Source: Microbacteriaceae bacterium (GTDB lineage: Bacteria > Actinomycetota > Actinomycetes > Actinomycetales > Microbacteriaceae). Taken from it: DNA of 64,000 nucleotides. A program made the translations under genes and the position numbers. The number at the start of each line of letters is the position of its first letter. The stretch's first letter is position 1. The notes beneath the pieces were generated by a model. That model was not told the origin of the DNA, did no database searches, and worked only from the letters and a program-made list of their open reading frames with translations. Positions 39,212 to 43,627 of this stretch are shown here, one piece after another. The stretch is from positions 58,032 through 122,031 of the forward strand of contig JAIXWK010000002.1 of NCBI GenBank assembly GCA_027491295.1, in the 5' to 3' direction.

Positions 39212-39970
39212 TTAAGCGAGCACAACATCTACACCTGCGCTCGAAAACTTATCCAAATACTTCTGTTCGATATCTAAGTTTGTGACCACTCGGTCAAAGT
39301 CTTCAAAGTTTGCAAATTTGGCAGGATAGGGAATCCCGAACTTTCCGCTGTCTGCCAGAAGAATTTTCTCGTGGGACTGCTGCATCATGATCTTCTTTAC
39401 CTGGGACTCGTCCGTGTCGAAGGCTGTTATTCCACCCTCCAAGGATGCGCCATTGGTTCCAATGAAGGCCAAGATGGCGTTGTAGTCAGCGACCTCAGAA
39501 GCGGTCTTAGCCCCAACAGAGCTGTGGGTTGCCGGACGAATGCGACCACCAAGCACAACAGTTTGGGTTGAGCTATCCGCGAGTTTGGATGCGAGATTGA
39601 TGTTGTTGGTAACGACAATTAGCTTTGGCTTATCTCTGAGGTAAGGGGCAAGGCATTCGGTCGTCGAGCCTCCATCGACAAAGATGCATCCTTCTTCCGG
39701 AATGTATGAGGAGGCGAGTTGAGCCACCATTCGTTTTTTGTCAGGGTTGAGGCCAAGTCTTTCGGTCATCGTGTACTCGTGACCGAAGCGATCGTTTGAA
39801 ATCGCTCCGCCGTGCACCCGACGAAGTGCCCCCCGACGCTGAAGCAGATCTAGGTCTCTTCTGACGGTCTCTACCGCGACATCCAGTTTCACAGCGGCGC
39901 GGCCCGCATCAAGCTTTCCCTCGATGCGCGTCCACTCAACTAACTTGAGTCTTCGCTCTTCTGCCAACAT
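39212..39970 (-). CDS. DeoR/GlpR family transcriptional regulator
   Basis: Motifs ETVRRDL.LL...G.LRRVHGGA, DGGSTT, TN and DSGKFG. Confidence 0.9.
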   Translation of the reverse strand: MLAEERRLKLVEWTRIEGKLDAGRAAVKLDVAVETVRRDLDLLQRRGALRRVHGGAISNDRFGHEYTMTERLGLNPDKKRMVAQLASSYIPEEGCIFVDGGSTTECLAPYLRDKPKLIVVTNNINLASKLADSSTQTVVLGGRIRPATHSSVGAKTASEVADYNAILAFIGTNGASLEGGITAFDTDESQVKKIMMQQSHEKILLADSGKFGIPYPAKFANFEDFDRVVTNLDIEQKYLDKFSSAGVDVVLA

Positions 39971-40392
39971 CTTCGTTGATCTCCGTTTTTGCCTGTATGG
40001 CTAATTTTTCACGACAGTAACAGCGAATTCTCAGAAAAGTTAGGTGAAACGGGCAGAAACCCACAAAAAAAGATAACTTTTCTATAACAAGTAGTTCTGT
40101 CCTAGATGACTGCAGCAGGCAGGGGACGTCCTGGTAAATTATTTCCGGCTTGCGGCAAAATGCCTCTGTTTCCTCTCCAAAGCAGACCTTTAGGCAGCAT
40201 GAGGATTTTTTGTCCGCTGATTATCTCGGTTAGGAACACGCCAAGCGGGATGCATGGCGAGCGAAAAAGAACTTTTAGCTAGAGCTTCAATTTTCAAGTA
40301 GCTTTCAGTTGGGCGGTATCTTTAGCCCAAGACGAGGCGTACAAGATGATCGAAGTCGGATTTCGCCTCGGCCGTTTTGAGTTAGGAGACCA

Positions 40393-40605
40393 GTGAATCT
40401 GAATCTAGATAGTTTTTGGTACGGAATTCTTGTGGTGGCCGCCGTGCTTTTTTTCGGCTGGAGAGTTTCCAGAAGCCTCAAAGCGATAAAGGCAGCCAGG
40501 GCTGCAAAAAAGTCTGCTCCGCTTATCGAATGGCTTTACCTAGTTATGGCGCTGTTCCTGGCTTCTTTGTTTGTTTTAAACGCTCTGGGCCTGGTCAACG
40601 GCTAA
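40393..40605 (+). CDS. Small hypothetical protein with two TM segments, upstream of actinorhodopsin
   Basis: 70 aa, two hydrophobic segments separated by a basic loop; SD TAGGAG before the GTG start. Confidence 0.65.
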   Translation: MNLNLDSFWYGILVVAAVLFFGWRVSRSLKAIKAARAAKKSAPLIEWLYLVMALFLASLFVLNALGLVNG

Positions 40606-40779
40606 GAAAATCCGCAACAAGTTACCAAAACGTTACCTTTTTAGCGGTTAAGCAACTCGCATCATGCTGTTAAATCGCTGTGAGTCGAGCAATGTAGCCG
40701 ATTCGCCTGAGCCGATAAAGCTCGACGAGTGGACTTCTGACTTGTACCTAATTAAAAAGTCATCGAAAGGACTTTCGAA

Positions 40780-41553
40780 ATGGAATCATTGATCAGCGAG
40801 GGCGGATACAACATCGTATTCAACATGCTCTCTATGGGTATTGCAGCGATGCTTTTCACCACCATCTTCTTGGTGATGGCAAAGGACCGCGTTCTACCTC
40901 GTTACCGCATGGCAGTAATGGTTTCGGCAACCGTAACCGGTATCGCTGCCTACCACTACTTCAGAATGTTTGACAGCTTCAACCACGCTTTTGGACCAGA
41001 CGCCATCGAAGGCACTGTGTACAACGTGGGCTACCGTTACGTGGACTGGCTACTAACAGTTCCTCTACTTCTAGTTGAGGTTATTGCTGTTCTAGGTCTA
41101 GCCCGCGCACTGCAGAGCTCCCTACTAGTTCGCCTAGTACCAGCTGCTGCACTGATGATCGGTCTTGGTTACCCAGGAGACGCACAGCTAGACATCGCAG
41201 GCATCGCGCCTTCTGTCTGGGGTCTACTATCGACCATCCCATTCCTATACATCTTGTACGTACTATTCGTTGAGCTAGGCAAGTCCCTAGACAAGCAGTC
41301 CGCTGCAGTTCAGCGCAAGATCAAGGAACTACGTTTGCTTCTTCTAGCAACCTGGGGTGTTTACCCAATCGCCTTCATTGCAAACATGAACGCAACTGGT
41401 TTCGACGAGGGTGGATTCGTACTACGCGAGGTTGGCTACTCAGTAGCTGACATCTTGGCTAAGTGTCTATTCGGTCTAGTGATCTTCACCATCGCTCGCA
41501 TCAAGAGCGCTGAGGACGACGCTAGCTTCGCTAAGTCAGAGTTCAAGGACTAA
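40780..41553 (+). CDS. actR: Actinorhodopsin (xanthorhodopsin-family outward proton pump)
   Basis: YRYVDWLLTVPLLLVE (DTE motif), LMIGLGYPG, WGLLSTIPF, WGVYPI and DILAKCLFG (retinal Lys). Strongly biased codon use (cta, gct). Confidence 0.95.
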   Translation: MESLISEGGYNIVFNMLSMGIAAMLFTTIFLVMAKDRVLPRYRMAVMVSATVTGIAAYHYFRMFDSFNHAFGPDAIEGTVYNVGYRYVDWLLTVPLLLVEVIAVLGLARALQSSLLVRLVPAAALMIGLGYPGDAQLDIAGIAPSVWGLLSTIPFLYILYVLFVELGKSLDKQSAAVQRKIKELRLLLLATWGVYPIAFIANMNATGFDEGGFVLREVGYSVADILAKCLFGLVIFTIARIKSAEDDASFAKSEFKD

Positions 41554-41572
41554 TAGAAAGGTTGTGGCTCCA

Positions 41573-41680
41573 GTGAAAAAAATCGATTGGGACGTTGTCC
41601 AAGCCGTTGTGCTAGTGGGAATGCTTCCAGCGATGTTGATCTTCGGAGCTATCTTCCCTTCGCTATTCGCGAACTACTAA
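41573..41680 (+). CDS. 35-aa single-TM microprotein downstream of actR, not in the ORF track
   Basis: GTG 41573 to TAA 41680 gives MKKIDWDVVQAVVLVGMLPAMLIFGAIFPSLFANY. SD AGAAAGG at 41555-41561; the ORF ends just before the terminator. Confidence 0.65.
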   Translation: MKKIDWDVVQAVVLVGMLPAMLIFGAIFPSLFANY

Positions 41681-41690
41681 AGCTAAAAAG

Positions 41691-41720
41691 AAACCCCGGG
41701 TCTTAGGACCCGGGGTTTTT
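41691..41720. terminator. Bidirectional intrinsic terminator ending the actR transcript
   Basis: AAACCCCGGGTC-TTAG-GACCCGGGGTTT, flanked by A and T tracts. Confidence 0.9.
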
Positions 41721-41729
41721 CTTTAACCG

Positions 41730-42194
41730 CTATTTGAACCACTCGGTCGGTGGTCCCAAGAACAACAGGAATGCAAACACCGCCGGAATGGCGATCAGCA
41801 AAACTGCTAGCAGCAGATAGGGACGCGCAATGAACCAGCGAAATAGCCGATCGATGAATCCCTTATCTCTTGGGTCTTGACTCGCAACAGTTCTCCAAGA
41901 ACCCTCAAGGGCCGAGATTGAAACCAACCTGCGCTCAAAAGGAATGGTGGCGAATGGCACAATCGCAAGCGCTACTGCCAGAGCCAACTTGCCAAAGCTC
42001 CAGCGCTGGTTGATGCCAACCAACAAAGCGGTCACGGCATAGCCCAAAAAGACGGCTCCGTGGATGCCTCCGGCAATCGTCACAATCGCAGGGATTGGAT
42101 CTCCCATTGCCCGTATCACCAGTGCGGCAATAAGTAGCGTCCAGGTAATCGCCTCGCCTCTAGCGAAGGTTAGGAAAAGTTGCTTCGGTTTCAC
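41730..42194 (-). CDS. DUF3817-domain membrane protein
   Basis: A..EAITW.LLI, G.IHG..F..Y and A.VPF.T.PFE pattern. Confidence 0.75.
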   Translation of the reverse strand: MKPKQLFLTFARGEAITWTLLIAALVIRAMGDPIPAIVTIAGGIHGAVFLGYAVTALLVGINQRWSFGKLALAVALAIVPFATIPFERRLVSISALEGSWRTVASQDPRDKGFIDRLFRWFIARPYLLLAVLLIAIPAVFAFLLFLGPPTEWFK

Positions 42195-42220
42195 GTAACT
42201 CCTTTGGTTGCCCCAAGAGT

Positions 42221-43627
42221 TTATGCGCGAAGGGCCTTTGCCAGCTCCCTAAAGTGCTCGACCATCTTGTCCATGTCCTTCTGAGTGTGCATGAGAGAAA
42301 CCAACCACTGCTCATCGAGTCCCGGAGGGGTGATGATGCCGCGGTTGATGCCCCAGAGCCAGCTCAGTTCGGCAATTCCAAAGTCAACGTTTTTGAAGTC
42401 GCGATAGTTGCGAACCGGAGTCTTAGACCAGGTGATTGCTCCCTTTAGTCCCAATCCGATGGTGTGAGCTGGAAGCTCATACTCTTCGATAATTGCGTTG
42501 ATCTTGTTCAGGGTATTGACGTTTATCTGCTCGGCTTTTTGCATCGCCTTTGGAGTTACTAGCTCCTCAACCGCCATCACCGCTGCCAGAACCAACGGGT
42601 TACCGTTGTAGGTTCCGTAGTGTGCCATGCGGCCATCGACAACTGCGTCCATGTACTTCTGCTTGCCACCAAAAGCAGCAACTGGAAGCCCGCCGCCGAT
42701 GCTCTTAGCCAGGGTAATCAGGTCAGGCTCAACTCCGGTTCGACCGGCTGCGCCAGCCTCTCCAGCGGTGAGGCCAGTCTTTACCTCATCGAAGATCAAG
42801 CAAATGTCGTACTTATCGCACAGCGCTCTAACTCCATGAAGGTAACCCTCGTCCGGAAGCACGATGGAGATGTTCTCCATTACCGGCTCCAGGCAGAAGG
42901 CTGCAATCTTGTGAGCGTTCTCGCTCATGATCTTCTCGAGGTATTCGAGGTTGTTGTAAGGAACTACAAACACCTCACCTGGCTCTACCTCAGATGGAAC
43001 CTCTGGGATAGGCGCATTGCCATCTCCGATGTTCGCAAGCTTTGGCTTGACCGATACCTGAAGTGGGTCGTAACCACCGTGGTATCCACCCTCAAGTTTG
43101 ATGATTGCATTTTTTCCGGTTGCCGCACGCGCGGTTCGAATCGCATACATCAGCGATTCGGTGCCGGAATTGGTAAAGCGAATCATGTCTAGGTTGAAGC
43201 GCTTTTTGAACAATTCAGCCGCCACGGTAGCGGTTGGCGAAGGGGTTACAAACAAGGTTCCGGTATTCCTAAGAGCACGCTTTACAAAGCGAACCACCTT
43301 TGGATTTAGGTGTCCGACCATCATTGCGCCAAAGCCCATGGATAGATCCAACAGCTTGCGGCCGTCGACGTCCTTGACGTAAGCGCCCTTGGCGCTTGCT
43401 ATGGAAATGGGGTAGGGGTCCCAGTGCTGGAAGCTAGATGTAACTCCCATTGGTAGGGACTTGCTGGCTTGAACGTTCTCTTTGCCAGATAGTTTTGTGG
43501 TTTTTTGGAATAGCTCCCACTCTTTGGTGAGCAGCTGTCTAACTCTGTCTTGATTCAATTCACGAGAGGTATTAGGTACCACTCGGTGTCCAGCAGGGTC
43601 GTGTTTTGGGTTATGCACTTGTGACAC
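42221..43627 (-). CDS. Class III PLP aminotransferase, glutamate-1-semialdehyde aminomutase-like
   Basis: Motifs FTNSGTE, GGYHG, LIFDEVKTG, LAKSIGGG.P and GTYNGNP. Start placed at GTG 43627, after AAAGGAG. Confidence 0.8.
   Translation of the reverse strand: MSQVHNPKHDPAGHRVVPNTSRELNQDRVRQLLTKEWELFQKTTKLSGKENVQASKSLPMGVTSSFQHWDPYPISIASAKGAYVKDVDGRKLLDLSMGFGAMMVGHLNPKVVRFVKRALRNTGTLFVTPSPTATVAAELFKKRFNLDMIRFTNSGTESLMYAIRTARAATGKNAIIKLEGGYHGGYDPLQVSVKPKLANIGDGNAPIPEVPSEVEPGEVFVVPYNNLEYLEKIMSENAHKIAAFCLEPVMENISIVLPDEGYLHGVRALCDKYDICLIFDEVKTGLTAGEAGAAGRTGVEPDLITLAKSIGGGLPVAAFGGKQKYMDAVVDGRMAHYGTYNGNPLVLAAVMAVEELVTPKAMQKAEQINVNTLNKINAIIEEYELPAHTIGLGLKGAITWSKTPVRNYRDFKNVDFGIAELSWLWGINRGIITPPGLDEQWLVSLMHTQKDMDKMVEHFRELAKALRA

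Follow-up and report, generated by a model that had tools for sequence, protein, structure and literature searches.

The 64-kb stretch of DNA analysed here (the window) carries an actinorhodopsin gene, actR, followed on the same strand by a small gene for a predicted single-pass membrane protein of 35 residues (Table 1). The window ActR is 53–95% identical to rhodopsins from Aquiluna, Rhodoluna and other actinobacteria, and it shares 78.7% identity with that of Ca. Aquiluna IMCC13023 (locus L097), which has been characterised (PMC8113403). Its translation contains RYVDWLLTVPLLLVE and ADILAKC and has the fold, the DTE-type motif and the Schiff-base lysine by which actinorhodopsins are recognised. 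Judged by these features, the product encoded upstream of the small gene is an actinorhodopsin, the light-driven proton pump of a freshwater actinobacterium.

Table 1 Features at the actR locus, in window coordinates
Feature	Position	Strand	Basis
Approximate 5' end of the actR transcript	40694..40717	+ (strand inferred)	RNA contig starts in four metatranscriptomes
actR, actinorhodopsin gene, 257 aa	40780..41553	+	Pfam Bac_rhodopsin, E 1.2e-36
Shine–Dalgarno-like AGAAAGG	41555..41561	+	Sequence reading; 11 nt ahead of GTG 41573
Small gene, predicted 35-aa single-pass membrane protein MKKIDWDVVQAVVLVGMLPAMLIFGAIFPSLFANY	41573..41680	+	GTG start, conservation in 41 loci, codon periodicity
Bidirectional intrinsic terminator	41685..41725 (stem 41691–41718)	.	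Terminator scan; drop in RNA depth
DUF3817 membrane-protein gene, convergent	41730..42194	-	Pfam DUF3817, E 1.1e-18; NCBIfam TIGR03954

The small-gene GTG lies 19 nt past the actR stop, and the frame runs for 35 codons to a TAA at 41678–41680; an alternative in-frame GTG upstream, at 41564, would give 38 residues with MAP added N-terminally. The six closest relatives have an equivalent Shine–Dalgarno element, GGAAAGG or AGAAAGA/G. actR itself ends in tandem in-frame stops, TAA TAG (41551–41556), the second of which (41554–41556) overlaps the beginning of AGAAAGG. The terminator stem has 12 pairs, 8 of them G–C, with a loop of 4, and the 113-nt stretch containing it folds at −41.7 kcal/mol. Because an A-run precedes the hairpin and a T-run follows it, it can terminate both the actR–small gene unit (+) and the convergent DUF3817 gene (-), which is syntenic only in the window, L001, L002 and L081–L084. 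The arrangement given in the first-pass annotation, which was made from the letters alone, is confirmed: AGAAAGG stands right after the actR stop, GTG 41573 opens a 35-aa ORF with a basic N terminus and a single helix (also predicted by AlphaFold2), the ORF ends 10 nt before a strong terminator, and the terminator scan of the window placed no terminator-like site between actR and the ORF, the gap being just 19 nt.

On the other side, 174 nt upstream of actR and on the same strand, a 70-aa ORF with two hydrophobic stretches (40393–40605) is kept only in the closest relatives (86–87% in L082 and L083, 63% in L001), and metatranscriptome contig depth over it is 0. The ~420 nt between this ORF and a divergent gene for a DeoR-type regulator (39212–39970, minus strand), that is, 39971–40392, contain no convincing ORF and gave no Rfam match; a weak terminator-like site lies at 40355–40372 (+).

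An ORF of this size carries little information by itself, since 58 ORFs of 20 aa or longer fall at least partly within the surrounding 4 kb; the comparison across loci is what raises it above chance. We fetched 80 loci around rhodopsin relatives and searched them for the peptide downstream by tblastn and with a profile. For protein search, a 41-aa read-through of the window frame served as query. The peptide was found directly 3' of the rhodopsin, on the same strand, in 12 of the 80. We then scanned 185,579 species genomes with the peptide pattern IDW[DE][LV][IV]Q.., which returned 28 loci. In total, 41 loci hold this peptide at the same place, in 31 distinct nucleotide versions, and across all 31 the 96-nt core has neither indels nor stops. 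Variation follows the codons: summed column entropy at positions 1, 2 and 3 is 25, 12 and 46, the third position being the most variable, pN/pS is 0.33 in frame versus 1.1 and 2.0 in the other two frames, and dN/dS is ~0.16 (64 unsaturated pairs). Synonymous sites are near saturation (pS 0.73), yet the frame is intact. No alternative frame is open across the 31 versions, each being stopped in 23–31 of them. Every copy has a Shine–Dalgarno sequence and a start codon at the aligned position; the start is ATG in nearly all, the window GTG being an exception inside its own subclade, and at 41573 the RNA contigs from close relatives have A in place of G, giving ATG.

The first-pass annotation had proposed looking in Luna-1 and acI genomes for a conserved small ORF downstream of actR; it is present without indels in the Aquiluna-like clade of Luna-1, and absent at all ActR loci sampled from acI-like genomes, from Rhodoluna and elsewhere. 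We conclude that 41573–41680 (+) is almost certainly a real, co-transcribed gene. A chance ORF, or a 3' UTR element of the actR mRNA that is not translated, is scarcely credible: ORFs of such size are indeed common nearby, but neither reading accounts for the codon periodicity, for so low an in-frame dN/dS, for a frame intact at near-saturated synonymous sites or for Shine–Dalgarno and start codons kept in 41 loci, and no RNA element accounts for the region, since Rfam searches in E-value mode (39900–42300) and gathering mode (whole window) reached no family at threshold and gave only sub-threshold matches, on the terminator.

Transcription was read from river and lake metatranscriptome contigs (n = 8 runs) placed on the window. 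These stem from close relatives (90–99% identity) and carry no strand information, and their depth is that reported by the assembler. In six of the eight metatranscriptomes a single contig bridges the actR coding region and the small gene (for example, 41179–41637, 41200–41636, 41425–41662 and 41476–41696), at depths of 33–76, equal to those of the actR contigs. RNA depth is 0 upstream of ~40635 and past 41703, and the contigs that start at the left edge of the transcript (Table 1), two of them with adapter sequence directly 5', suggest that the transcript begins there. The small gene of the window lineage is thus clearly the 3' cistron of the actR mRNA, which runs from ~40.70 kb to the terminator. 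For this lineage, bridging contigs of equal depth that end at the terminator bear out the earlier proposal that the ORF lies inside the actinorhodopsin transcript.

The arrangement is different in most relatives. A gap of 18–19 nt with the terminator placed after the small gene occurs only in the subclade of the window (the window itself, L001, L002/L084, L081–L083 and L085). At ten other loci a G+C-rich hairpin with a T-run stands between the actR stop and the small-gene Shine–Dalgarno sequence, the whole intergenic region folding at −29 to −39 kcal/mol, and these relatives have a stronger Shine–Dalgarno sequence, AAGGAG or AGGGAG, 5–8 nt before an ATG. RNA levels differ accordingly in one marine metatranscriptome at the locus of Aquiluna sp. 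Uisw_065 (complete genome), where depth is 2,000–22,900 over actR, 0 over the hairpin, 31–43 over the small gene and 7–17 over the downstream nitroreductase gene. In other runs the depth is 64–109 for actR versus ~2 for the small gene, and overall the small-gene RNA of relatives with the intervening hairpin is ~100–500 times lower than that of actR. No conserved promoter was seen by eye in the 25–45 nt between the intervening terminator and the small gene, and we infer that these relatives express it by read-through. The two designs, low RNA with a strong Shine–Dalgarno sequence and equal RNA with a weak start, would then converge on a low ratio of small protein to ActR. At one locus (L016:1359–1620) the small gene stands between two hairpins as its own tiny unit, the hairpin after actR having a poor T-run and the one after the small gene a good one.

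The link to actR is close. In all 28 reference-genome loci with the peptide, a rhodopsin gene lies immediately upstream on the same strand. The upstream neighbours of actR fall into six classes across the carriers, and there are at least three arrangements downstream: a nitroreductase–cytochrome P450 pair; in the L015 clade, an 800-aa convergent gene inserted ahead of that pair; and in the clade of the window, DUF3817 plus an aminotransferase. Since both flanks vary, the pair of actR and the small gene is the invariant unit, and where the block broke, the small gene remained with actR and not with nitroreductase–P450. The link is also restricted. In a neighbour-joining tree of the rhodopsins all carriers fall in one clade, of Aquiluna-like Luna-1 bacteria, and three non-carrier lineages that have kept actR are nested within it (L009; L008 with L017; L005 with L007). 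From their position in the tree we read these as losses of the small gene. In these three lineages the next gene comes straight after the actR terminator; for L007 it is the nitroreductase gene itself. Co-occurrence with the presumed partner across genomes is therefore incomplete, being limited to one ActR clade with three absences inside it, and homologs also occur without an adjacent rhodopsin. ActR showed no co-variation with the presence or absence of the small gene: four alignment columns that seemed to track it (180, 237, 241 and 252) reflect phylogeny instead, given that L098 and L023 carry the gene and share the 'loss' states.

Most Aquiluna loci have a nitroreductase–P450 pair after actR, whether or not the small gene is present (for example, L094:4118–6029, L119:4130–6047 and L007:3841–5752), and several Rhodoluna loci (L042, L044 and L048) have a homologous P450 gene close by on the 5' side of actR. 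This neighbourhood may hint at a rhodopsin-related role of the two enzymes, such as carotenoid modification. What looked like a convergent gene next to the small ORF in L003-type loci is not one: the conserved 'gaaccac' there is part of the co-directional nitroreductase gene (RRTTRDF motif).

The encoded protein is small and hydrophobic, with 35 residues and one transmembrane helix. Its N-terminal segment is both basic and acidic (KK-IDWD), and the helix runs from W6 to Y35 with conserved P19, G25-A26 and P29; the 19-residue Kyte–Doolittle mean reaches 2.3. AlphaFold2, run with 83 sequences, predicts one helix (residues 6–27 and 29–32) at a mean pLDDT of 94. Across the same 83 sequences P19 and G25 are invariant, and I4, D5, W6, A26 and Y35 are at least 90% conserved. 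The helical moment of conservation is 6.35, against 2.99 ± 1.48 in shuffles, 1.8% of which reach it. Such one-faced conservation would look like a helix-packing surface, and with its conserved residues on one face the protein most likely packs against a membrane partner.

The family extends beyond the actR loci. A profile search of 5.8 billion proteins found at least 118 family clusters at 90% identity, all unnamed or 'hypothetical' and without a Pfam domain; they have stayed nameless because such peptides fall below the usual ORF-length cut-offs. An exhaustive HMMER scan of 1.84 billion representatives gave 13 true clusters at 50% identity, two long matches being repeat artefacts. As all 13 are at most 71 aa long, none is fused to a rhodopsin or to another domain. 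Searches of Pfam, NCBIfam and PDB sequences with the peptide and with the 83-sequence profile gave nothing at threshold, and hence no homology to CydX, KdpF, Hli, the Anabaena sensory rhodopsin transducer ASRT or any PDB chain. The Pfam family DUF7333 scored 14.4–14.6 bits over 18 residues in 3 of the 83 members, below its gathering score of 27 bits. The literature searched, including work on Aquiluna ActR and Luna-1 rhodopsins, makes no mention of the small gene; the family, its link with rhodopsin and its occurrence on phage-like contigs seem to be undescribed, whereas a microprotein beside a membrane machine is a known kind of object.

Among cellular reference genomes, only those of the one Aquiluna-like clade carry the family, always directly 3' of actR. 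Other members lie in phage-like surroundings. Six contigs of the IMG/VR viral collection carry one, P0110 being on a contig of 108.9 kb (IMGVR_UViG_3300002835_000063). P0105 and P0119 adjoin ThyX, P0106 and P0114 adjoin Dam and DUF4192, and P0058 and P0118 adjoin a Pyr_excise gene (T4-endonuclease-V type), a context in which HNH is also found; a further phage-like context has a 2OG-Fe oxygenase with a carbamoyltransferase auxiliary metabolic gene (AMG). The remaining neighbours are small ORFs without a Pfam match. Several neighbour genes match PHROG families, including carbamoyltransferase, 2OG-Fe oxygenase and DNA methyltransferases. A member is next to or near a pyrimidine-dimer excision gene at L132:3001–3641, L133:1082–1722 and L118:2906–4129, with a gap of 3 nt in L132 and L133; the recurrence of this neighbour in two phage-like contexts may be a shared sunlight theme or coincidence. 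A further auxiliary gene, ferrochelatase-like (phrog_2954, E 1.3e-11; L126:6589–7161), lies on an IMG/VR contig that has a family member.

Just one library family, phrog_14464, annotated as 'membrane protein', gave matches more than once, and these are weak. It matches 13 of the 83 sequences of the main alignment and 10 of the 21 in a divergent set (best E 4e-5), over nearly the whole peptide, which suggests that the family as a whole is distantly related to it. The window protein itself has no match to it at E 0.01, and this PHROG is of no known function. A tblastn search with three members against 50,697 GenBank phage records gave no match, possibly owing to low-complexity masking.

Two members, P0117 and P0122, lie between trmD and rplS and between dnaA and rpmH, with no rhodopsin nearby, and their C termini are of the phage type (FTPNY and FSSKY). 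TrmD in the P0117 lineage shares 84% identity with its counterpart in Aquiluna Tobar13m-G3, which belongs to the L009 lineage and has no actR-linked copy. Relocation of a lost actR-linked copy to the trmD–rplS spot was considered and rejected, as 0 of 80 trmD loci from reference genomes hold a copy, Tobar13m-G3 included. The two copies look like separate captures of phage-type sequence. The dnaA–rpmH copy (L127:2484–2609) precedes rpmH-rnpA-yidD-yidC and the trmD–rplS copy (L109:1584–1721) precedes rplS-lepB; both spots thus lie among highly expressed housekeeping genes with neighbours in membrane-protein biogenesis (YidC and signal peptidase I).

Single-helix small proteins that are encoded beside a membrane complex usually bind that complex, as do CydX of cytochrome bd and KdpF of the Kdp-ATPase. 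The small protein resembles both in having 30–40 residues, one transmembrane helix and conserved residues on one face, and in being co-transcribed, in the window, with an energy-transducing membrane protein. It differs from them in that the gene mostly stands behind a terminator, has been lost while the partner was kept, and has homologs in phage-like and unrelated loci. ASRT offers a different parallel, its gene lying immediately 3' of a microbial rhodopsin gene in the same transcript, but it is a soluble protein of ~125 residues and the partner of a sensory rhodopsin, whereas the small protein is a 35-residue membrane helix encoded behind a proton pump.

The first-pass annotation had proposed an accessory subunit of the rhodopsin, by analogy to the single-helix subunits of photosynthetic and respiratory complexes. 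A genuine membrane-protein gene, its place in the actR transcript of this lineage and its constant adjacency to actR all support part of this proposal. A structural subunit of that kind is not supported. The IMCC13023 genome carries the small gene. Expressed without it in E. coli, the ActR of this strain pumps protons, and the protein purified alone rebinds native carotenoids (PMC8113403). The peptide is thus at most non-essential for a rhodopsin that is active by itself. Together with the intervening terminator, the RNA gap of at least 100-fold, the three absences and the other clades without the gene, this argues against a stoichiometric or obligatory subunit, and the homologs found elsewhere point the same way.

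What we tentatively favour, short of calling it probable, is that ActR is the functional target and the small protein a dispensable, sub-stoichiometric candidate helper. The conserved helix face would pack against a membrane partner, and the single most likely partner would be ActR, since the neighbourhood has no invariant other than this pair and the gene was pulled into the actR mRNA in this lineage. The protein would then act as a helper or modulator that is needed in small amounts, with ActR insertion, folding, oligomer stability or chromophore loading as candidate targets. The mRNA of the relatives, at ~1/100–1/500 of actR, and the equal mRNA with a weaker start in this lineage both fit a helper of low amount.

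Nearly equal in standing, and likewise short of probable, is an autonomous membrane protein of a phage family that uses actR transcription and has no specific relation to ActR. It would be of the moron or host-takeover type, serving for example in superinfection exclusion or another phage–host membrane function, and would have been captured by cellular genomes more than once; its place behind actR would then result from one ancestral insertion and read-through from the most strongly transcribed gene of the cell. Sequence diversity is indeed highest outside the actR-linked group, members occur in at least four different phage-like contexts, and the six IMG/VR contigs, the PHROG matches of neighbouring genes and the hits to phrog_14464, which is filed under moron, AMG and host takeover, fit this origin. 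So do the phage-type sequences at trmD–rplS and dnaA–rpmH, beside highly expressed genes and, in the former case, in a lineage whose TrmD is 84% identical to that of an Aquiluna genome with an actR that lacks the gene. The intervening terminator and the three losses are also what would be expected if ActR does not need the protein. However, stable vertical inheritance under a dN/dS of 0.16 throughout a genus-level clade of streamlined 1.3-Mb genomes is not what defence or moron genes typically show, the pair with actR outlasted rearrangements on both sides, and the window lineage moved the gene ahead of the terminator, where its mRNA equals that of actR. Furthermore, the GenBank phage records gave no match, members are not beside lysis genes in the phage-like loci read, and no concrete mechanism is indicated.

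The phage-like homologs fit an origin of this kind and also a scenario in which phages carry a light-harvesting accessory gene of the host, as cyanophages do with hli, which they carry along with psbA. By analogy, the Hli/Scp proteins of cyanobacteria and cyanophages are likewise tiny one-helix membrane proteins tied to light harvesting and shared between host and phage, but the small protein has no chlorophyll-binding ExxNGR-type motif, and the phage-like loci read have no rhodopsin adjacent to it. The boldest form of the helper reading, in which the small protein would be the first known case of a protein partner dedicated to a light-driven, proton-pumping rhodopsin, and phages of freshwater actinobacteria would carry copies as an auxiliary gene for manipulating host rhodopsin phototrophy in the course of infection, is unlikely to be correct.

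We consider it quite improbable that the protein self-assembles into a small pore or leak, viroporin- or holin-like, that tunes the membrane potential, serving takeover in phages and used by the host beside its pump. A one-sided conserved face with Pro and Gly-Ala, occurrence in both phage-like contigs and cells, and a place next to the pump that generates the proton-motive force would suit such a function. The helix, however, has no polar or charged residues to line a pore, mRNA at the level of actR would be risky for a pore former, there is no adjacent endolysin in the phage-like loci read, and the purifying selection resembles that on housekeeping genes. Nor do the members look like phage holins: their phage-like neighbours are ThyX, Dam, Pyr_excise, 2OG-Fe oxygenase and small ORFs of no known function, and at the C terminus, where a holin has a charged tail, the protein reads ANY(R). 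Type I toxins such as shoB, paired with ohsC, are also short hydrophobic ORFs, and the small gene of relatives could be overlapped by a transcript that is convergent or lies downstream; the gene has no evident antisense RNA, is under strong purifying selection and has constitutively high mRNA in this lineage, and the Rfam match to ohsC (27.3 bits versus a gathering score of 50 bits) is the terminator.

Very doubtful, too, is a role as first cistron of a nitroreductase–P450 operon, as its membrane anchor or partner, in which the actR link would be indirect, for example through an operon that modifies a carotenoid or another light-related compound. In ~25 of 39 loci the nitroreductase GTG follows the small-gene stop by only 9–12 nt, with an overlapping P450 gene after it, and one RNA contig of low depth extends from the 3' half of the small gene into the beginning of the nitroreductase gene. 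Yet no homolog of either enzyme is found in the 64-kb window, the 800-aa convergent gene intervenes in the L015 clade and a terminator follows the small gene in L016, in L007 the small gene is missing, with actR, terminator, nitroreductase and P450 all retained, and neither enzyme is found in the phage-like and housekeeping contexts.

A microbial pump rhodopsin is usually taken to be a self-sufficient single-protein module, one protein plus retinal, and in some of the most abundant freshwater bacteria the actinorhodopsin gene ranks with those transcribed most strongly. Both readings of the small protein, as a helper of ActR and as a phage–host membrane factor that takes advantage of the actR promoter, are testable in culturable Aquiluna strains and in E. 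coli, and editing tools exist for related Luna-1 strains (PMC11577799). If it is an ActR helper, it would reveal a hidden accessory layer of rhodopsin phototrophy, with a bearing on the expression, assembly, antenna loading and heterologous use of these pumps.
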